Of a DNA stretch of 64,000 nt, positions 12,052-54,771 are shown one piece after another. This DNA is from Bacteroidales bacterium (GTDB taxonomy: Bacteria; Bacteroidota; Bacteroidia; Bacteroidales; JBGRPZ01). Position 1 is the first letter of the stretch. The number at the start of each line of letters is the position of its first letter. A program made the translations under genes and the position numbers. The DNA lies in contig JBGRQE010000011.1 in the NCBI GenBank assembly GCA_041725955.1, forward strand, positions 348 to 64,347. The letters run 5' to 3'. Below the pieces are notes generated by a model. It had not been told where the DNA came from, searched no databases, and saw nothing but the letters and a program-made list of their open reading frames with translations.

Positions 12052-13365
12052 ATGGCAAAATTTGAAATAATAATGCCTAAGATGGGCGAAAGCATCATTG
12101 AGGCAACCATTACAAAATGGCTTATTGAAGAAGGTGAAAAAGTAGAAGAAGATGATTCTATTGTTGAAATTGCCACTGATAAAGTAGATTCTGAAATTCC
12201 CTCCCCTGTTGATGGAACTCTTGTAAAAAGACTTTTTTCTGAAGGAGATGTTGTTCCTGTTGGAGAAATAATTGCAATCATCAATATCGATTCAGACGGT
12301 GACGAAGAAGATAACGAACCTGAAGATGAAACAGCTAAAGAAGTCGATAAATCAGACCCAAAGGAAGATAAAAAAGAAGTTTCTGAAGTAAGTTCAGATT
12401 TTAAAAGTAGTGACAGATTTTATTCTCCGCTTGTTCGAAACATTGCAAAAGAAGAGAATATTAAACTCGAAGAACTCGAAAAAATAGAAGGAAGTGGCTC
12501 TAATAACAGACTAACCAAAGACGATTTACTCAAATATATAGAAGAGAAAAAAGGCAGCCCTGCCGCAACTTCTAAGAAAACAACCCAAGCTCCTACCCCT
12601 CCAACTCAGCACAAAGAAGCCAGTAGTCCACCAGCTCCAAAGATTGAATCGGCATCAGGCGACACAGTGGTTCCTATGGATCGAATACGTAAAATCATTG
12701 CCGAACATATGGTTATGTCAAAACGTACTTCTCCGCATGTTACCATGTTTATAGATATTGATGTTACCAATATCGTAATGTGGAGAAATAAAGTAAAAGA
12801 TGCATTCTTGAAAAGAGAAAAGGAAAAAATTACTTTCACTCCTATTTTTGTTGAAGCTGCAGCAAAGGTTCTTAAAGAGTTTCCGGGTGTAAACTCCTCT
12901 ACCGATGGAGAAAACATTATTTACCGGAAGAACATAAATATAGGTATGGCAACAGCTTTACCTAATGACAACCTAATTGTTCCTGTAATAAAAAATGCAG
13001 ATCAGAAGAATTTGCTCGGACTTACAAAAGATGTAAATGACCTTGCAACTCGCGCCAGAGATAATAAACTTTCTCCTGACGAAATTCAAGGAGGAACTTT
13101 TACCATAACCAACTTCGGATCGTTTAACAACCTGACAGGTGCTCCAATTATCAATCAGCCAGAATCGGCAATCCTTGGAGTTGGTGCAATTCGAAAAACT
13201 CCTGTGGTTATTGATAGTCCGAATGGCGATATGATTGGAATCAGAAGTATGATGATTATGTCGCTGGCCTTCGATCATAGAATTGTTGACGGTGCTATGG
13301 GAGGCAGATATCTTCAAAGGTTAAAAGTTGTTCTTGAAAACTTCGATGTAAGTCAAGAAATTTAG
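12052..13365 (+). CDS. 2-oxoacid dehydrogenase E2 component (dihydrolipoyllysine-residue acyltransferase)
   Basis: 437 aa. Lipoyl domain with EIATDKV. Acidic and Pro/Thr-rich linkers. Peripheral-subunit-binding segment (SPLVRNIAKEENI). Catalytic DHRIVDGA motif. Confidence 0.9.
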   Translation: MAKFEIIMPKMGESIIEATITKWLIEEGEKVEEDDSIVEIATDKVDSEIPSPVDGTLVKRLFSEGDVVPVGEIIAIINIDSDGDEEDNEPEDETAKEVDKSDPKEDKKEVSEVSSDFKSSDRFYSPLVRNIAKEENIKLEELEKIEGSGSNNRLTKDDLLKYIEEKKGSPAATSKKTTQAPTPPTQHKEASSPPAPKIESASGDTVVPMDRIRKIIAEHMVMSKRTSPHVTMFIDIDVTNIVMWRNKVKDAFLKREKEKITFTPIFVEAAAKVLKEFPGVNSSTDGENIIYRKNINIGMATALPNDNLIVPVIKNADQKNLLGLTKDVNDLATRARDNKLSPDEIQGGTFTITNFGSFNNLTGAPIINQPESAILGVGAIRKTPVVIDSPNGDMIGIRSMMIMSLAFDHRIVDGAMGGRYLQRLKVVLENFDVSQEI

Positions 13366-14895: not shown

Positions 14896-14952
14896 AAACG
14901 ACTTTATTAAATTCTAAAGCAAGTATTTTTTTACTTCACTACTAAGAAAAAC

Positions 14953-14996
14953 AAAAAGCACCAAGGTGAATTTTAAAAACTACCTTGGTGCTTTTT
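14953..14996. terminator. Bidirectional intrinsic terminator formed by two inverted units of the 22-bp repeat family
   Basis: Perfect 15-bp inverted repeat, aaaaagcaccaaggt (14953-14967) and accttggtgcttttt (14982-14996), with a 14-nt loop. The A-run and T-run flanks allow use in both directions. It lies 58 nt after the FAH stop. Confidence 0.7.
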
Positions 14997-15180
14997 ATAT
15001 TTCATTATAATGTTTTTCATAATTCACCACAATGCTTTTTATAATTCACCATAATAAAAGGGTATCCTCCACCATAATGAAAGGGTCATTTTCTTTACTA
15101 CAAAAGGTATAATCCTCCAGAAGAGATGAACCATTTGAAGTCGAAGGTTGCTCACCTTCACCTTGGTACTTTATTATTTT
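14953..15180. repeat. 22-bp-period degenerate tandem array, locus 1 (CACCWWGGTG-core family)
   Basis: Core starts read at 14959 (CACCAAGGTG), 14981 (TACCTTGGTG), 15003 (CATTATAATG), 15025 (CACCACAATG), 15047 (CACCATAATA), 15070 (CACCATAATG) and, after decayed units, 15159 (CACCTTGGTA). The last is still in phase (4 x 22 after 15070). The array fills the convergent spacer between the FAH gene and the DUF721 gene. Confidence 0.75.
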
Positions 15181-31237: not shown

Positions 31238-32722
31238 ATGCTCGTATACATACTAATTTCCCCAATTTTATTTTGTTATATTGCATTTTTCTCTAAAATA
31301 GTCTTTGAAACCAATAAACTTCCAAAATGGTGGGCTTTAATTCCATATTGGAATATATTTCAGTGGACCAGATTAATCAATTTACCTCCAATAATTAGTT
31401 TACTAGCTTTTGTTCCATTCATCAATTTACTTTTCTTTATTTTTCTTGTCTACAAAATCTTAGAAAAAAACAACTTTAATAATCTTTGGGAAAACATTAT
31501 CGCATTACTACTCCCTTTTATCTTCTTCCCTCTTTACTTTAAAAATAAACTTAAAATAAAACCTGACTCTTCTGTTTCTGCATACTCAAAACCAATTTGG
31601 AGATCATGGCTACATACTTTTATTTTTGCAATTTTATCTGCAATTGTAATCCGACAATTTATTGTTAGCCCTTATATAATTTCATCTTCTTCTATGGAAG
31701 GCACCTTGCTCACAGGAGATTATACAATAGTATCAAAATTAAATTATGGGCCTAGAATTCCTCTACCATATTTAAAAAATGATAAAACCAAAGCAGGGAA
31801 CAATAGAAATAGATATTTTAGTTTTATACGCCCTAGTGGCCTCTCAAAAATAAGAAGAGGAGATATTTTAGTTTTCAACTTTCCAGAAGGAGATACATTA
31901 ATAAAAAATCAAAAAGGATATTACTCATATTATGATCTAATTCGAAACATTGGCAGGAAAACAGTACTGTCAGATCCTCAGGCTTTTGGATATCCTGAAT
32001 ATATACCTATTAACAAACGTCAAAATTTTGTAAAGAGATGTGTAGGTTTACCTGGAGATACATTTTCAATTAAAGAAAAACAAACATATGTTAATTCTCT
32101 AAAATTTCCACTCCCATCCAAAGCTCAATTTTTATATTTTGTAACCACAAATGGAGACAAAATTTCACCAGCGTTCTTTCAAAATAATAATGCAAATAAA
32201 TACCCTAATGAAGTAGGTGTTAATCAACAAGCTATTTGGATGTCGCCTAAAGCCAAAGAAAAATTGGAAAATCTTTCCATAATTACAAAAATAAAAGAAA
32301 GACAAGAGCATAAGAATTGGTGGAATAAAGAGATATTTCCGCATACGGAAAATTATCCCTGGAATTCTGATAATTATGGACCTATAGTAATTCCATACAA
32401 AGGAATGAAAATAAAAATCACAAAGTCAAATCTACATTTATACAAAAGAATAATTATTCATTATGAACACAATGATTTAGATTATATAAACAATGAATTT
32501 TACATAAATCAAATAAAAACATCAACCTATAAAATAAAACAAAATTACTTCTGGGTAATGGGTGATAATAGAGATAATAGCATAGATAGCCGATTCTGGG
32601 GATTTGTACCTGAAGATCATATTATAGGAAAAGCCATTTATGTTACACTATCAGTAAATACTGAAAATAAAATATTATCGTCAAAATTTAGATGGAAGAA
32701 TTCTTTTCAATTTTTAAAATAA
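31238..32722 (+). CDS. lepB: Signal peptidase I, paralogue 1, with extended N-terminal membrane domain
   Basis: 494 aa. Catalytic Ser box SSSMEGTL, Lys box KRCVGLPGD, box E GDNRDNSIDSRFWGFVP. N-terminal multi-TM region with a WWALIPYWNIFQW motif. Confidence 0.9.
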   Translation: MLVYILISPILFCYIAFFSKIVFETNKLPKWWALIPYWNIFQWTRLINLPPIISLLAFVPFINLLFFIFLVYKILEKNNFNNLWENIIALLLPFIFFPLYFKNKLKIKPDSSVSAYSKPIWRSWLHTFIFAILSAIVIRQFIVSPYIISSSSMEGTLLTGDYTIVSKLNYGPRIPLPYLKNDKTKAGNNRNRYFSFIRPSGLSKIRRGDILVFNFPEGDTLIKNQKGYYSYYDLIRNIGRKTVLSDPQAFGYPEYIPINKRQNFVKRCVGLPGDTFSIKEKQTYVNSLKFPLPSKAQFLYFVTTNGDKISPAFFQNNNANKYPNEVGVNQQAIWMSPKAKEKLENLSIITKIKERQEHKNWWNKEIFPHTENYPWNSDNYGPIVIPYKGMKIKITKSNLHLYKRIIIHYEHNDLDYINNEFYINQIKTSTYKIKQNYFWVMGDNRDNSIDSRFWGFVPEDHIIGKAIYVTLSVNTENKILSSKFRWKNSFQFLK

Positions 32723-32946
32723 AGGTATGATGACTTTTTTAGTACACGAAAATTATATTTCATCGACTCCTTAATTCTAAATTTATTAAATAATGACTCT
32801 ATCAAAAGTATATAAGCCCGAACAAAGGCTATATCGATTAAGCATTTCACTCTGTCTGCATACTATAAATAAGCATACTACATATAGGAGGTAGCCTTAC
32901 CTTACTTTTGGATCAAGGCAGGTGATGATTGCTCTTTACTCCAAAA

Positions 32947-33084
32947 GGTTTTCATCAAATACCTAGGAGGTTTTCATCAAACACCTAGGAGGTTTTCACC
33001 AAATATCTAGGAGGTTTTTATCAAATATCTAGGAGGTTTCCACCAAATATCTAGGAGGTTTTTACCAAATATCTAGGAGGTTTA
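32947..33084. repeat. Six near-identical 22-bp tandem units (plus partial seventh), locus 2 of the repeat family
   Basis: Units start at 32947, 32969, 32991, 33013, 33035 and 33057 (ggttttcatcaaatacctagga and variants with 1-4 substitutions). Decayed, roughly 22-bp-phased copies flank the core (TAGGAGG at 32885; AAGG motifs at 33095, 33116, 33139). Confidence 0.9.
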
Positions 33085-33319
33085 GGTCTAATTCAAGGTA
33101 AGTGCCGAGGAATTTAAGGGTAGGAATGGTAATGATTTAAGGTAAAAGTAATGACGATTGTTAGTAGGGCTTAAAGGCGTTTAAAGTATAGTAAAAATTA
33201 TTGACGTGTACTTAGTAACTTTTTATTGACTCAATTCATACAATAAACTAGCTATTTTAACAACTTTATCAATATTGATTTGTATTTTCGCAATTCAAAA
33301 CCATAATGACAGAAGTTTT

Positions 33320-34834
33320 ATGCTAGAATTTGTTATATTATTACCAGCTTTATTCACTTTTCCAGCAATTTTCGCATGGAATTTATTTGTAAAAGCGGGC
33401 ATACCAGGATGGAAAACTATAATCCCTTTTTACAATCTTTTTGTTTGGTTAAGACTTATTGAAAAACCTCTTTGGTGGTATATCATACTGATAATTCCTT
33501 TTATCAATATTTTTGTCTTGATGCTAATGGTAATTGAATTATTAAAATGTTACAAAAAACATTCTTTATTAGACCAAGCATTGGCTGTTATTTTTCCTTT
33601 TTTCTATTTACCATGGTTAGGTTTTCAAGAAGAAACTTTTACTGCTCCAAAGGACCAGGAAAAAATTAAAAAAGGTTTTGTTCGTGACTGGGTCGATACA
33701 ATTTTATTTGCAGCAATTGCAGCAATGATAATTAGAACATTTTTGGCAGAGGCGTATACAATACCAACCTCATCGATGGAAAGTTCTTTACTTGTAGGAG
33801 ATTACCTATTTGTAAGTAAATTAGCTTATGGTCCAAAAGTACCTAATACTCCTTTATCATTTCCATTTGTTCACCATACACTACCTCTGTCAACAGAAAA
33901 AAAATCATATTTAGATTGGATTGAATTGCCAGACTATAGATTCCCTGGTTTTGGTAATGTAAAAAAAGGAGATGCTGTTGTTTTTAATTATCCTGCCGGA
34001 GATACAGTTTCCACCAAATTTCAATCAAACATATCTTATTATGACCTTATTGAAAAATACGGTAGAAAAAAAGTATTGAGTAACCCTGCTACTTTCGGAG
34101 AAATCGTTTATCGTCCTATCGACAAACGTGAAAATTATATAAAAAGATGCATTGGAGGCCCTGGCGATTCTCTATACTTAAAAGATAAAATTGTTTATAT
34201 AAACGGGAAAAAAGCTCCAATACCAGAAAACTCTCAAGCACTTTATTGGATTAAAACTAATGGAACACCTATTTCCAATTACTATTTCGATCAATTAAAT
34301 GTTTCTGAATACCAAGAGTTTCTTGGTAAAGACAATGTTATGTGGGCTCAATTAACAAGGGCAGCGAAAGATAAAATTGAAAAACTGCCAAATGTGTTAG
34401 AAGTTCAAGTGAATTTAAGACAAGCAGGAACTCCTAATACAGATGTATTTCCAAACGATATAAATTATTCTTGGAGTATGGATAATTTTGGTCCTATATA
34501 CATCCCTAAAAAGGGAGCAACGATAAAATTATCTCAAAAAAACATAGCACTGTATAGAAGAGTTATTCATGCATATGAAGGAAATTCTTTAGAAGAAAAG
34601 GATGGTAAATTCTTTATTAATGGTAAGGAAACAGATTCTTATACTTTTAAAATGAATTATTACTGGATGATGGGCGATAATCGTGATAATAGTGCAGATT
34701 CACGAGTATGGGGTTATGTACCAGAAAATCATATTGTAGGAAAAGCCTTCTTTGTATGGTTATCATTAGACAAGAACAAAACACTATTCGATGGTAAAAT
34801 ACGTTGGAATAAATTGTTCCGTGTAATTAGATAA
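33320..34834 (+). CDS. lepB: Signal peptidase I, paralogue 2
   Basis: SSMESSLLVGD, KRCIGGPGD and GDNRDNSADSRVWGYVP motifs. N-terminal GWKTIIPFYNLFVW membrane domain. I prefer the ATG at 33320 (MLEFVILL) over the track start at 33275. Confidence 0.9.
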   Translation: MLEFVILLPALFTFPAIFAWNLFVKAGIPGWKTIIPFYNLFVWLRLIEKPLWWYIILIIPFINIFVLMLMVIELLKCYKKHSLLDQALAVIFPFFYLPWLGFQEETFTAPKDQEKIKKGFVRDWVDTILFAAIAAMIIRTFLAEAYTIPTSSMESSLLVGDYLFVSKLAYGPKVPNTPLSFPFVHHTLPLSTEKKSYLDWIELPDYRFPGFGNVKKGDAVVFNYPAGDTVSTKFQSNISYYDLIEKYGRKKVLSNPATFGEIVYRPIDKRENYIKRCIGGPGDSLYLKDKIVYINGKKAPIPENSQALYWIKTNGTPISNYYFDQLNVSEYQEFLGKDNVMWAQLTRAAKDKIEKLPNVLEVQVNLRQAGTPNTDVFPNDINYSWSMDNFGPIYIPKKGATIKLSQKNIALYRRVIHAYEGNSLEEKDGKFFINGKETDSYTFKMNYYWMMGDNRDNSADSRVWGYVPENHIVGKAFFVWLSLDKNKTLFDGKIRWNKLFRVIR

Positions 34835-51074: not shown

Positions 51075-52922
51075 ATGTCAGAAGCTCAATATACTGAAGA
51101 AAGTATCCGATCGCTTGATTGGAAAGAACATATACGACTACGTCCCGGTATGTATATCGGAAAACTAGGAGATGGCTCCTCTCCCGACGATGGGGTTTAT
51201 GTACTGCTGAAGGAAATCATCGATAACTCAATCGATGAATATGTTATGGGATATGGGAAAAAAATTGAGATTACCATTTCAGACGATATAATTCAAGTTA
51301 GAGACTTTGGACGAGGAATGCCTCTTGGAAAGGTTATTGATTGTGTTTCGAAAATTAACACCGGAGCAAAGTACGATTCGAAGGTTTTTAAGAAAGCCGT
51401 CGGACTAAATGGTGTTGGAACAAAGGCTGTAAATGCATTATCAGAATTCTTTCAGGTAGATGCTTTTCGCGATGGGCAATCAAAGAAAGTTACGTTTCAA
51501 CGTGGTGTTATTACTTCCGAAGAGCTTATTCAGAATTGTGAGGAAGACAATGGAACCAAAATCTCTTTTATTCCAGACAAGCAAATATTTGGAAGCTATC
51601 ATTACATCTCAGACTTTATTGAAGAAATGTTATGGAATTATGCCTTCCTCAATTCTGGACTAAAGATTTATTTGAATGGAAAGAAATTTCAGGCTAAAAA
51701 CGGACTGTTAGACCTTCTTAACCATAATATTGATAAGCAAGAGAACATAATTTACCCATATATTCATATTCAGGAAGACGACTTTGAATGTGCCATAACT
51801 CACTGCGAAAAGCAGTATAGCGAAATCTACTACTCTTTTGTAAACGGACAACACACAACCCAAGGTGGAACTCACGAAGCGGCATTTAAAGAAGGTATTG
51901 TAAAAACCATTCGTGAGTTTTACAATAAAAACTACGACACTTCCGATATTCGCACTGGTTTTGTTGCTGCCTTAAGCCTGAAGGTTCAGGAACCCGTGTT
52001 CGAATCTCAAACCAAAACTAAACTAGGATCTCAACACATGGAGCCCGAAGGGGTTACCATACGTACTTACATTGGTGATATTCTGAAACGTAAGCTCGAC
52101 AATTTCCTTCATATTAATTCTGATACTGCCGAAGAACTTCAAAAGAAAATTGTTAAATCGGAAAAAGAACGTAAGGAACTTGCTGGCATAAAGAAATTGG
52201 CGAAAGACAGTATAAAGAAAGCCAGTTTGCACAACAAAAAGCTTAGAGATTGCCGTGTTCACAGAAACAGCAAGAATGAATTGCGATTAAATTCAACCTT
52301 ATTTATTACCGAGGGCGACTCTGCAAGTGGTTCAATAACAAAATCGAGAGACGTAAACACTCAGGCCGTATTTAGTTTAAAGGGAAAACCGCTAAACTGC
52401 TACGGGCTAAGCAAGAAGATTGTTTATCAGAATGAAGAATTTAATCTGCTTCAATCTGCGTTAAACATCGAAAATGGTATTGAGAATCTTAGATACGACA
52501 AAATTGTAATTGCAACTGATGCCGATGTCGATGGCATGCACATACGTTTGTTGCTCCTCACCTTTTTCTTGCAATTTTATCCCGATATTGTAAAAGCCGG
52601 GCATGTTTACATTTTGCAAACTCCTTTGTTTAGGGTAAGAAATAAGCAAAAAACAATTTATTGCTACACCGAAGAAGAACGAATTAAGGCCTTAGACACT
52701 TTGGGAAGCAATCCGGAAATTACTCGATTTAAGGGTTTAGGAGAAATCTCGCCCAACGAGTTCAAGAATTTTATCGGAGCAAATATTCGTCTCGATCCAG
52801 TTATACTGAAAAAAGGACATGCTTTAGAAGACATTCTAAAATTCTTTATGGGGAAAAATAGTCCGGAAAGACAAAAGTTCATTATCGACAATCTTAGAAT
52901 CGAAGAAGACATTTCTGCCTAA
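51075..52922 (+). CDS. parE: Type IIA topoisomerase subunit B (topoisomerase IV ParE, short Bacteroidetes form)
   Basis: 615 aa. [38 protein letters not shown] (GHKL ATPase), [14 protein letters not shown], and [10 protein letters not shown]. At ~615 aa the length fits ParE better than GyrB in this phylum. Confidence 0.85.
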
Positions 52923-52948
52923 CACTTCAACAAAGCACTGTTTTCAAT

Positions 52949-53258
52949 GCACCTTGGTGAAGGGATACCAACCACCAAGGTGCAAGGGTAGCTTGCACCA
53001 TAATGCAATGGTTCATCCCTAGTCGAGAGTTACACCCTTGCACCTTGGTGCACGACACCATTCCTAGTCGTTGGTTGCACCCCTTCACCTAGGTGATTTT
53101 TAATTTTCATTAGGGTGCATTTCAATTTTCACCATGGTGCTTTTTAATTTTCATTACGGTGCTTTTTAAAATTCACCTTGGTACTTTTTAATTTTCACCT
53201 TGGTGCTTTTTGATTTTCATTAGGGTGCATTTCGATTTTCACCATGGTGCTTTTAATT
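52949..53258. repeat. ~14-unit 22-bp-period tandem array, locus 3 (CACCWWGGTG-core family) with nested inverted repeats in its 5' part
   Basis: Core starts at 53086, 53108, 53130, 53152, 53174, 53196, 53218 and 53240 are exactly 22 bp apart (CACCTAGGTG, CATTAGGGTG, CACCATGGTG, CATTACGGTG, CACCTTGGTA, CACCTTGGTG, CATTAGGGTG, CACCATGGTG). More diverged cores sit at 52950, 52973, 52996 and 53041. The perfect 17-bp inverted pair 52973-52989 / 53034-53050 is nested inside a 14/16 pair 52949-52964 / 53081-53096. Confidence 0.9.
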
Positions 53259-53262
53259 TATC

Positions 53263-54771
53263 TCAATATAGTTCGCAAAAAGCCTTGGGTAAATAATCGA
53301 TAATATCTGACGCAATCAACGATTCAAAACCTTTATCGGCGGCAGCCAAATCGCCTGAACTTCCATGCAAATAAACCCCTAAAACACAAGCCTCGAAAGG
53401 CGTATACGATTGCGACAACAAGCCCAATAAAATACCAGTAAGCACATCGCCACTTCCTCCTGTAGCCATTCCTGGGTTGCCAGTAGTGTTTAAATAACAT
53501 TCGCCATCAGGAGTAAAAATCATAGTATGAGCCCCTTTTAATATAAGATATACAGAATGTTTTACGGCTAACGCCCTGGCCTTCTCCATTTTGTCGAAAT
53601 CGCTATCCCATTTCCCCACCAATCGTTGAAACTCTCCGGGATGAGGAGTTAAAATACTTCCCGAAGGAAGAAAAGAAATCCATGTTTTGTTTTCAGAAAG
53701 AATATTCAATGCATCGGCATCCAAAATCAATGGATTATCATACTGCTGAATCAATAGCTTTAGCATTCGCATGGTTTTCTCGTCTTTTCCTATTCCCGGA
53801 CCAATTGCTATTGAACTATAATCTAAATCTTTGGGAATTGATGTTAAAACAGAATCATTTTCGTCTAAAGACAACATTGCTTCGGGCACACTCATCTGTA
53901 AAATGTCAATTGCATGATTGGGTATATGAACGCTTAACAGCCCCAAGCCGCTTCTTATGGCTGCCCTGCTACTTAAAACACAAGCCCCCATTTTGCACTT
54001 GCTTCCTGCAAACAACAGTGCATGCCCAAAGGTTCCTTTATGACTAAATTTTGATCTGTGCTTTAATAAAGAAGCAACATTCAATTTTGTCAACACAAAG
54101 TTTTTGCATTCAACCCTATCCAAAAACTCGGGCAAAATGCCAATAGGAATAATTTCCCAATTGCCCACATAAACATCGTTTTCGGGCATAAAGAAAGCCA
54201 ATTTAGGAACCTCAAAGCTAAGAGTATAATCGGCATGAATAATATTGCTGCCCCTTTTTATAGATGTCCGATCAGCAAATAAACCAGAAGGAATATCTAT
54301 AGAAATCACTACAGCCTTCATTGCGTTTATCCTTTTAATCAAATCGCCTAATAATCCTACAATAGGCTTAGACAAACCACTTCCAAACAAAGCATCGACA
54401 ATTAAATCGTCCGAAGAAATATTAGGCACATCATCGCTTGCAGATATTTTAACACAAGATAAATCTACCTCCTGCAGCCTATGTTTGTTATGCAAAAAAT
54501 CATTTGAATAGGAAGAAACGCCATCAAGAATATAAACACAAACCTTATATCCCACAAACTTTAATAAACGGGCAATTACCAAACCATCGCCACCATTATT
54601 GCCCGGTCCACAAAAAACATGAACCGTTTGCTCTTTCTTCAATCTTTTCAAAATCCAATTAAAAGCATTTGTGGCAGCACGCTCCATCAAGTCGACCGAC
54701 GAAATTGGTTCATTCTCTATGGTATAAGCATCGGCTTGACGAATGTTTTCTACAGGAAGTATTTTAATCAT
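53263..54771 (-). CDS. nnr: Bifunctional NAD(P)H-hydrate repair enzyme (epimerase + ADP-dependent dehydratase)
   Basis: 502 aa. The N-terminal YjeF_N part has CGPGNNGGDGLV. The C-terminal carbohydrate-kinase part has KGTFGHALLFAGS, LILDADALN and GNPGMATGGSGDVLTG. Confidence 0.9.
   Translation of the reverse strand: MIKILPVENIRQADAYTIENEPISSVDLMERAATNAFNWILKRLKKEQTVHVFCGPGNNGGDGLVIARLLKFVGYKVCVYILDGVSSYSNDFLHNKHRLQEVDLSCVKISASDDVPNISSDDLIVDALFGSGLSKPIVGLLGDLIKRINAMKAVVISIDIPSGLFADRTSIKRGSNIIHADYTLSFEVPKLAFFMPENDVYVGNWEIIPIGILPEFLDRVECKNFVLTKLNVASLLKHRSKFSHKGTFGHALLFAGSKCKMGACVLSSRAAIRSGLGLLSVHIPNHAIDILQMSVPEAMLSLDENDSVLTSIPKDLDYSSIAIGPGIGKDEKTMRMLKLLIQQYDNPLILDADALNILSENKTWISFLPSGSILTPHPGEFQRLVGKWDSDFDKMEKARALAVKHSVYLILKGAHTMIFTPDGECYLNTTGNPGMATGGSGDVLTGILLGLLSQSYTPFEACVLGVYLHGSSGDLAAADKGFESLIASDIIDYLPKAFCELY

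Follow-up and report, generated by a model that had tools for sequence, protein, structure and literature searches.

The parE-nnr spacer and its repeats

The DNA analysed here, a stretch of 64,000 nucleotides from a Bacteroidales bacterium (assembly GCA_041725955.1, contig JBGRQE010000011.1; hereafter the window), carries an array of 22-bp tandem repeats between a parE-like gene and nnr, two housekeeping genes that converge on the spacer they enclose. The spacer (52923-53262) is bounded by the two stop codons, the TAA of the parE-like gene (52920-52922) and the stop of nnr (53263-53265), which is where an earlier reading of the letters alone (the original prediction) had placed its limits. The G+C content of the window is about 32%. 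The 64 kb are the readable part of their source, a metagenome-assembled genome (MAG), an origin that leaves some doubt about how many copies a tandem array has exactly. The ParE protein is 100% identical to the NCBI protein 'DNA topoisomerase IV subunit B [Bacteroidales bacterium]', and the RecF of the window is 100% identical to a protein that NCBI names from 'MAG: Bacteroidales bacterium'. The spacer and its flanks contain the following features:

51075-52922, plus strand: parE-like gene, topoisomerase IV subunit B (Pfam DNA_gyraseB, Toprim and HATPase_c)
52935-52950, minus strand: small hairpin with a T-run (GCATTGAAAACAGTGC TTTGTTG), from the terminator scan and the minus-strand minimum free energy structure
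52946-53096, no strand assigned: G-type module, from inverted repeats I1 (26 nt, 77%), I2 (17 nt, 100%) and I6 (12 nt, 100%)
53084-53259, plus strand: T-type array, from Tandem Repeats Finder (TRF), repeat families, register listing and lag-22/44 autocorrelation
53263-54771, minus strand: nnr, bifunctional NAD(P)H-hydrate repair enzyme (Pfam YjeF_N and Carb_kinase)

The T-type array consists of eight head-to-tail 22-bp units in exact register (consensus TTCACCATGGTGCTTTTTAATT; TRF gives period 22, 8.0 copies and 75% matches for 53084-53259), the last of which ends 3 bp before the nnr stop codon. The register listing and TRF agree that eight 10-mer cores, with starts from 53086 to 53240, are spaced by exactly 22 bp, as had been predicted. 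The module can be written as TTCACC-WW-GGTG-CTTTTTAATT, with a core that alternates between CACC..GGTG and CATT..GGTG. Across the eight units, conservation of the tail equals that of the core; what varies is the pair of C's in CACC (three units have CATT) and the central dinucleotide. Core variants in the window's mosaics (CATT, AATG and GGTA, for example) are nearly all transitions, C-to-T or G-to-A. Superimposed on the basic period are higher-order copies of 44 bp, seen as lag-44 identity, and of 110 bp: the predicted 41-bp block at 53108 is indeed repeated at 53218, 110 bp away, with 38/41 positions identical. Whole-unit homogeneity, the 38/41 block and the lag-44 identity point to recent amplification in place.

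The 5' part of the spacer (52946-53096) is a second unit type and not a diverged continuation of the T-type array. Its G-type unit has the same core, CACC-NN-GGTG, followed by a different tail, MAAGGGTA. Forward units start at 52950 and 52973, a degenerate one at 52997 and inverted ones at 53041 and 53086, and the last G-type unit (53086) has its core in common with the first T-type unit. The forward and inverted units, two of each, make a nested inverted repeat, with arms matching at 17/17 (52973-52989 and 53034-53050) and 14/16 positions (52949-52964 and 53081-53096), both exactly where they had been described; on the plus strand the module is followed by ATTTTTAATTTT. The first count of about 14 units was too high: eight are regular, and the 5' part adds four diverged cores with spacings of 23, 24, 44 and 45 bp.

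The array is real and non-random, as TRF, the repeat families and motif counts show: CACCWWGGTG occurs eight times in the 64 kb against 0.01 expected, and every CACC-NN-GGTG site of the window falls either in this spacer or in one other (locus 1, below). An assembly artefact or chance low-complexity sequence, for which the MAG origin and the liability of tandem repeats to mis-assembly would speak, is very improbable: the motif counts are far above those of shuffles, a second homologous locus lies on the same contig, and like arrays are found in many independent assemblies. Neither is the array a collapsed identical repeat, because its units differ from one another.

The GC skew is negative across almost the whole window (1-64000) and the cumulative skew falls steadily, so the plus strand is probably the lagging-strand template throughout.

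A homologous mosaic and an unrelated array in the window

Besides the parE-nnr spacer (locus 3), two further loci of the window carry repeats with a 22-bp period:

14947-15180, no strand assigned: locus 1, homologous mosaic in the convergent spacer between the FAA-hydrolase gene and dciA-recF, from alignment to locus 3
32946-33083, plus strand: locus 2 array (TRF, 6.3 copies, 90% matches, period 22, unit AGGTTTTCACCAAATATCTAGG)

Locus 1 aligns locally to locus 3 with scores of 53-67, against a shuffle maximum of 23. An inverted T-type unit (14947-14975) is followed by three forward T-type units (14979-15044) and a G-type pair (15045-15091); some 65 bp of other sequence then separate these from a terminal T-type unit (15157-15180). 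Inverted T-type units form the boundaries of the locus (inverted repeats I1 and I4). Loci 1 and 3 therefore have the T-type and G-type modules in common, while the order and orientation of the modules differ. The cores of locus 1 are heavily eroded by transitions (CATTATAATG, CACCACAATG and CACCATAATA).

Locus 2 sits between two co-directional lepB paralogues. Its alignment to locus 3 scores 20, which is shuffle level, and the two have only the 22-bp period and the octamer TTTTCACC in common; we therefore rejected it as a member of the family. It also has no self-complementarity in the column-permutation folding test described below. Several statements of the original prediction divide along this line. 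Recurrence of the core and T-rich tail at both other loci was borne out at locus 1 and not at locus 2; the placement of all three loci at gene 3' ends is correct for the two convergent spacers and wrong for the lepB spacer; and the parE-nnr copy, described as the most regular, is less so than locus 2 (75% against 90% matches in TRF). Around locus 2, the window encodes tandem paralogous signal peptidase I genes (31238-34834; Peptidase_S26 and DUF5684), the array lies in the 552-bp spacer between them, and a 20-nt inverted repeat with 80% identity (32741-32760 and 33193-33212) brackets most of that spacer.

The same spacers in related genomes

The convergent parE-nnr pair is widely conserved, and the content of its spacer is not. 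The corresponding region reads as follows in four relatives:

L242 (ParE identity 74%): parE and nnr overlap
L240 (ParE identity 74%): the genes are 135 bp apart, with no repeat
L241 (ParE identity 73%): a prolyl-isomerase gene, then a 148-aa Y1-transposase gene, with flanking palindromes GAACCCC...GGGGTTC that resemble repetitive extragenic palindromic (REP) sequences
L116 (ParE identity 86%): a canonical bidirectional terminator, then a 22-bp array abutting the nnr stop

The relatives lack the window's array at this site, and the one in L116 is unrelated to it: its six or seven units (AAGCAGCTTGTT plus a variable spacer) have no residual similarity to those of the window in the same spacer, and descent of one array from the other is rejected on that ground. 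In the same relative the locus 1 spacer (L243) is 69 bp long and holds a plain terminator. L116, for its part, has a 22-bp array in the lolA-DUF481 spacer, a position at which the window has only a terminator. Arrays that differ by presence among relatives at the same sites must have been gained and lost. The parE-nnr and locus 1 spacers look like tolerant sites colonised by different repeat elements, and the window arrays like lineage-specific insertions into such spacers.

Three other observations were made in these genomes. In L241 (6640-7300) at least five REP-like palindromes (GAACCCCTTCGGGGTTTAAC and variants) lie upstream of the 148-aa Y1 (HUH) transposase gene, and the region looks like a cluster, within Bacteroidales, of REPs and a REP-associated tyrosine transposase (RAYT). 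A further relative, GCA_041725915.1 (L117 and L244), has five tandem small genes with lanthipeptide leader-domain hits (PF28317) at L117:19474-20863, which may be a locus for several precursors of ribosomally synthesised and post-translationally modified peptides. NCBI names the ParE and RecF of this assembly 'Hyphomicrobiales bacterium'; the label looks wrong, because its ParE is 80% identical to that of the window and the gene order around parE and recF is kept.

A shared period in unrelated arrays

In an unbiased scan of lags 8-49, the three loci of the window and two of L116 gave lag 22 or 44, and no other lag was found. Other arrays of the relatives have a period of 21 (L243), of 22-23 and 22 (L244, with 7.5 and 4.6 copies) and of 22 (L117, 1.9 copies). 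Within about 150 kb, comprising the window and two relatives, nearly every intergenic tandem array has a period of 21-23 bp, and the sequences are unrelated; a control of 837 kb of loci from diverse bacteria, collected by the scan with TTCACCWWGGTGCTTTTT described below, contained a single weak 22-bp repeat. The property common to the arrays is the period itself and not self-complementarity. The units of the relatives at L244:5075-5242, L244:18905-19006, L243:19095-19195 and L116:184-300 are, respectively, TTTTAGGTAGCAAGAATTATAT, GGGAAGATGGATGAGTGTCAGT, GGATGAAACCAAAGTTTAAAA and GATAACTATCTCA plus a variable spacer. L117 has a 22-bp repeat (13238-13279) that lies 128 bp after a DUF4469-type gene.

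The period might be due to helical phasing over two turns, serving protein binding or curvature, to a process that duplicates a fixed length, or to an old 22-bp satellite whose sequence has turned over while unequal exchange kept the register. The second of these would have a recombinase or transposase cut symmetric targets with a stagger of about 22 bp, each cycle of insertion and excision, or each faulty repair, adding one 22-bp copy. Unrelated units of one length in essentially every intergenic array of the 150 kb, against one weak repeat in the control, are what such an enzyme would leave, and many units, though not all, have a symmetric core; dimeric transposases prefer symmetric targets. 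However, no transposase lies beside the window's arrays, and slippage after one founding duplication, or descent from an old 22-bp satellite, would keep the period equally well. A target duplication of 22 bp is not known to us from any bacterial element, and we regard this explanation as improbable.

Arrays with a conserved core in Phocaeicola and Prevotella

A metagenome scan with a pattern of two adjacent units (TTCACCWWGGTG-N10-TTCAYYWNGGTG) matched at least 120 stretches. The pattern carries about 41 bits, which by our own estimate corresponds to about one chance hit per 2x10^12 positions; it fixed both core and spacing, and by itself is no evidence for 22 bp over other spacings. The statements that follow, to the end of this paragraph, hold among the matches listed. 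At least 108 arrays have three units or more, and their flanks distinguish at least 34 loci. Four copies are usual, within a range of 3 to 6 (at the commonest locus, 25/29 alleles have four copies). All arrays are intergenic, in convergent (7), tandem (11) and divergent (5) spacers, and their neighbours are ordinary chromosomal genes; exact look-up of the neighbouring proteins identified Phocaeicola dorei, P. vulgatus and Prevotella species. The units keep the 12-bp palindrome TCACC-NN-GGTGA but not the 10-bp spacers, and 90% of them have the A after GGTG, although the pattern did not ask for it. An inverted unit or a longer inverted repeat often ends the array, and the flanks often hold unrelated 22-bp arrays in the same register.

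The young arrays of the window differ from this class in the last three respects, the kept core beside diverged spacers, the closing inverted repeats and the flanking arrays in register. In one Phocaeicola family (family C) the copies have short flanking modules in common, in either orientation, and are thus mosaics again; in those of its units that the pattern did not constrain, C-to-T changes in the left half number 25 against 7 G-to-A changes in the right half.

Individual arrays of the class are also worth recording. A Prevotella-type composite (L124:2590-2897) has about 14 consecutive 22-bp units of three kinds, with TCTCACGTGT on the left, TCACCATGGTGA in the centre and the inverse of the left unit on the right; the dyad centres of the fourteen units all fall at one offset in a single 22-bp register, and homologous composites occur at other genomic sites (L226, L236, L209 and L218). 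A Phocaeicola-type unit, TTTTCACCTAGGTGATAAGTGC, is dispersed in 4-5 copies over at least 14 distinct loci (L119, L166 and L177 also have it), four of them on one 366-kb contig (L140, L173, L179 and L185), and its arrays have short conserved flanking modules on either side in opposite orientation, such as tttagtagtcaactaaaaacgttaacatacaa and ataaacaggatgataacgtgttgtccatgtttttgag. Genes of the HU family (HU or HU-HIG) have a TCACC-type array no more than about 100 bp away in L134:9203-9950, L152:1945-2485, L145:4565-5052 and L192:2875-3422. By a rough estimate this proximity at four distinct loci is above chance; we treat it as a lead and not as a result.

These arrays bear most directly on another of the candidate causes, a phased array of binding sites. 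Dyad units would bind a dimeric protein and, at a spacing of 22 bp, present it on one face of the helix, so that the array organises the DNA or titrates the protein; the protein might be nucleoid-associated, ParB-like, of the HU family or encoded by a mobile element. Several findings are consistent with it: the palindrome kept while spacers are not, together with the unrequired A; the copy number centred on four; the common offset of the dyad centres of three unit types in L124; the conserved cores and variable spacers of the L116 arrays, which were found without a core-based search; and the four HU-family neighbours. The half-sites TTTCAC and GTGAAA, moreover, may resemble those of parS. In the window, however, the cores are the most variable part of the unit and are decaying, and no gene for a candidate binding protein adjoins the loci. 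Since unrelated cores have the same period, the model would call for many different proteins. Arrays occupy spacers of all three kinds (convergent, tandem and divergent) and are gained and lost between relatives, and none was found in phage and plasmid collections, where iterons would be expected. Phased binding sites, one of the options offered by the original prediction, thus find no support in the window and indirect support in the wider class (a kept palindrome, dyads in phase); for the element as a whole we consider them possible, at odds of about one to three.

Folding and putative terminators

The nested hairpin of locus 3 (52946-53096) folds at -70 kcal/mol on the plus strand, where it ends in a U-run (AUUUUUAAUUUU), and at -83 kcal/mol on the minus strand, where it is followed by the small hairpin with its own U-run. 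That small hairpin (52935-52950) is terminator-like for transcripts that would arrive from nnr. In locus 1 the first pair of units (14953-14997) forms a perfect 16-bp stem flanked by an A-run and a U-run; either strand has a U-run, and the folding energies are -22.4 and -24.7 kcal/mol on the two strands. Judged by its structure, this inverted pair is a textbook bidirectional terminator, which looks alike from each strand. Neighbouring direct T-type units, in contrast, can form only weak hairpins (-4 to -10 kcal/mol, with loops of 10-14 nt), and the terminator scan found none among the eight. A stable G+C hairpin, a U-run and a position at a gene 3' end, the usual marks of an intrinsic terminator, thus come together clearly in the inverted copies only, and by structure and position these very probably act as bidirectional terminators. 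The suggestion that the repeats are stacked terminators or stabilisers of the 3' untranslated region (UTR) accordingly survives for the inverted copies and is doubtful for the direct units, whose hairpins are weak and have long loops.

We also permuted the columns of the units while keeping the repeat structure. Against this control the T-type array exceeds permuted units only marginally in self-complementarity (z = -1.9 and -2.5), TCACC-type arrays reach z = -3 to -6, and locus 2 (+0.6/-0.45) and the arrays in L203, L118, L222 and L236 are at about zero. The test rejects hairpin formation as a property common to all 22-bp arrays.

An RNA element under selection would place the array in the 3' UTR of parE- or nnr-sense transcripts, as stacked terminators or stabilising hairpins between neighbouring units, as a small RNA derived from the 3' UTR or as a protein sponge. 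The whole spacer does fold far better than shuffles (z = -7.3 on both strands), and the inverted copies make canonical terminator hairpins with U-runs. T-type neighbours can pair, each pair then being followed by U5 on the plus strand, and the CACC-to-CATT variants still pair there through G-U, on the plus strand only; the 25:7 asymmetry of family C likewise fits a G-U-tolerant RNA helix on one strand. In both the window and L116, too, the array always lies between the stop codon of one gene and a terminator-like hairpin. However, the excess over the repeat-preserving control is marginal for the T-type array, locus 2 and the four other arrays at zero have no self-complementarity, and Rfam contains no match. 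The strand compatible with wobble pairing is plus in locus 3 and minus in locus 1, and the family C counts are not independent evidence, because the copies have ancestry in common; for these two reasons we rejected strand-asymmetric substitutions as proof of RNA structure. A selected RNA element is, on balance, unlikely, though less so than fixed-length duplication or an artefact.

Other candidate identities

The spacer array is non-coding: the sole open reading frame over it is a 53-codon GTG frame on the minus strand of the repeat. No Rfam family matched the window at gathering thresholds, and a permissive threshold gave only chance-level matches of microRNA type (E above 1); a tRNA search gave no match either. 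Promoter function was rejected, as the Bacteroidetes -7 motif TAnnTTTG is missing from loci 1 and 3 and sigma-70-type hits are at the expectation for AT-rich DNA. A clustered regularly interspaced short palindromic repeat (CRISPR) array was rejected because the units abut without spacers, and a type III toxin-antitoxin RNA (ToxI-like) because the neighbours are parE and nnr, both converging on the array.

Mobile origins were considered as well. Blastn of the spacer against phage and plasmid collections gave no match, and viral contigs gave no match spaced by 22 bp (the sole two were spaced by 21 and 24 bp); phage or plasmid iterons are rejected on these grounds. A plasmid origin was suggested by an array-bearing contig of 2747 bp, comparable to a small Bacteroides plasmid, and was dropped when megablast against plasmids came back empty; the genes of this contig are an extracytoplasmic function sigma factor and an adjacent reading frame that we read by eye as an anti-sigma factor. 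The Y1 transposase of L241 found no counterpart in the 64 kb by tblastn (best E = 3.4), and no transposase adjoins the window's arrays.

Literature searches by motif sequence and by phrases such as '22-bp repeat' returned only primers and irrelevant papers. The original prediction's view that this is not a described element holds within Rfam, the collections of phages and plasmids and the literature searched, with the qualification that a close precedent exists in the BrickBuilt element of Porphyromonas gingivalis (Klein et al. 2015, PMC4596501).

One motif is a trap for scans with this repeat unit. TTCACCWWGGTGCTTTTT matched at least 115 stretches of a genome collection, and all the listed ones are single hits without neighbouring cores; many of them are P-loop (Walker A) regions of ATPase genes, from many phyla, because the motif is the reverse complement of codons for K-S-T-L-V-N.

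Origin and significance of the element

We favour the reading that the spacer element is a selfish or neutral intergenic mosaic minisatellite, of the kind represented by bacterial interspersed mosaic elements (BIMEs), Neisseria intergenic mosaic elements (NIMEs) and BrickBuilt, and put its probability at about 0.5. It is based on lineage-specific insertion, modules common to two loci and rearranged between them, recent amplification and decay by transitions, and of the three options first offered (terminators or stabilisers, phased binding sites, a REP/BIME-like selfish minisatellite) it fits best. The element would have settled in spacers where insertions are harmless, such as the dead zone between converging genes, and would have grown in place by replication slippage or unequal recombination. 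Its palindromic core could favour slippage, the arms of a hairpin doubling as direct repeats spaced by 22 bp: the hairpin of locus 1 has such repeats at 14959 and 14981, and one of this type is a plausible seed. The element would now be eroding under AT-biased mutation. Its inverted copies very probably double as bidirectional intrinsic terminators for the flanking genes, and the direct array may add at most weak U-run hairpins to a parE-sense transcript, or a long structured 3' UTR to that of nnr.

Several points weigh against the minisatellite reading. The hallmarks of transposition were not found: there is no target-site duplication, no empty/filled pair, no end of the BrickBuilt or IS5 type and, apart from the units themselves, nothing that is clearly a terminal inverted repeat, and the 64-kb window encodes no Y1 transposase. 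Homologous loci number only two within the window. A neutral model does not explain the 21-23-bp period of unrelated arrays, nor the conserved cores with diverged spacers of L116, Phocaeicola and Prevotella, and the terminator function is read from sequence alone.

A broader proposal concerns the arrays at large. An order-wide and so far undescribed class of chromosomal arrays in Bacteroidales might be defined by the 22-bp period, often with a dyad core such as TCACC-NN-GGTGA, the period being set by a protein 'ruler' (a DNA-binding factor assembling on sites phased by two turns) or by an enzyme that duplicates a fixed length, and the window element would be a young, expanded member and not junk. 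We hold this with reserve, as somewhat less probable than the binding array, though it is this order-wide class that could be new.

Taken alone, the window matters little: it marks two convergent spacers as hosts for repeats and suggests where the flanking transcripts might end. The same core and 22-bp spacing in P. dorei, P. vulgatus and Prevotella, however, concern some of the most abundant bacteria of the human gut and mouth, and in the literature searched the kind of element has one description, BrickBuilt in P. gingivalis. Should the period and the core be under functional constraint, they would point to a DNA-binding or DNA-rearranging activity, so far unknown, in an order of medical importance; should the arrays be no more than selfish minisatellites, they would still be of use as strain-typing markers, besides being a known hazard for assembly and for structured-RNA screens.

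Comparison with known systems

Iterons of plasmids and lambdoid phages and partition arrays such as sopC and parC are direct repeats of about 22 bp (two helical turns) in three to eight copies, with dyad symmetry in every unit of lambda ori and sopC. The window array has the same exact 22-bp register of about two turns, and the wider Bacteroidales class keeps cores and not spacers, as such sites would. However, the flanks in the window are chromosomal (parE, nnr, FAA hydrolase, dciA-recF and lepB) without a rep or par gene, the arrays were not found in viral, phage or plasmid collections, and several loci occur on single contigs.

With bidirectional terminators the element has in common the locus 1 pair, built of an A-run, a 16-bp stem and a U-run, and the U-run of the nested locus 3 hairpin; its eight direct units, with their long loops and weak folding, are not usual terminators.

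REP sequences and BIMEs (Enterobacteria and Pseudomonas) and the NIMEs of Neisseria (dRS3/RS) are short palindromic modules that form mosaics of both orientations. They are concentrated in extragenic 3' regions and between convergent genes, with proposed effects on termination and mRNA stability. A REP is an imperfect palindrome of 20-40 nt that folds alone, carries a GTAG or CGTC tag and is associated with a RAYT, a Y1 transposase. The window modules are likewise palindromic, arranged as mosaics in both orientations and placed in convergent spacers, a resemblance in logic, and the relative L241 has REP-like palindromes beside a Y1-transposase gene in the same parE-nnr region. In contrast to a REP, the window core is 10-12 bp long, has no loop and no GTAG/CGTC tag and by itself makes no stable hairpin, pairing being a matter of two units, and the main array runs head to tail with a strict 22-bp period where BIMEs alternate in orientation with irregular spacing.

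The closest system is BrickBuilt, a 23-nt minisatellite in an intergenic element resembling miniature inverted-repeat transposable elements, with 19 copies in P. gingivalis (Klein et al. 2015, PMC4596501). It has long predicted stem-loops, is often adjacent to Rho-independent terminators, has no Rfam match, varies in repeat number between strains and has promoter activity; its ends are a distinct leader and tail with IS5-type terminal inverted repeats GAGACCTTTGCA and TGCAAAGGTCTC (PMC4596501). The same paper cites unlocated tandem repeats of 41, 23 and 22 nt in strain W83. Like BrickBuilt, the window element belongs to Bacteroidales, is strictly intergenic, consists of imperfect tandem direct repeats of about 22-23 nt without spacers, has long predicted stem-loops beside terminator-like hairpins and is without a match in Rfam. 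BrickBuilt has several dispersed copies in a genome, and the 64 kb of the window hold two homologous intergenic loci. The differences are that the period in the window is exactly 22 in all eight units against 23, that the boundaries of the window element are inverted copies of its unit where BrickBuilt has its leader and tail with IS5-type ends, and that loci 1 and 3 are without the Bacteroidetes -7 motif whereas promoter activity was shown for BrickBuilt. With up to two mismatches, GAGACCTTTGCA hits the 64 kb four times against 4.9 expected, with none near the three loci. The two elements are set apart here by description, the BrickBuilt 23-nt consensus being given as a logo figure. The window element resembles BrickBuilt in how it works, yet has neither the 23-nt units nor the leader and tail with IS5-type ends that define it.

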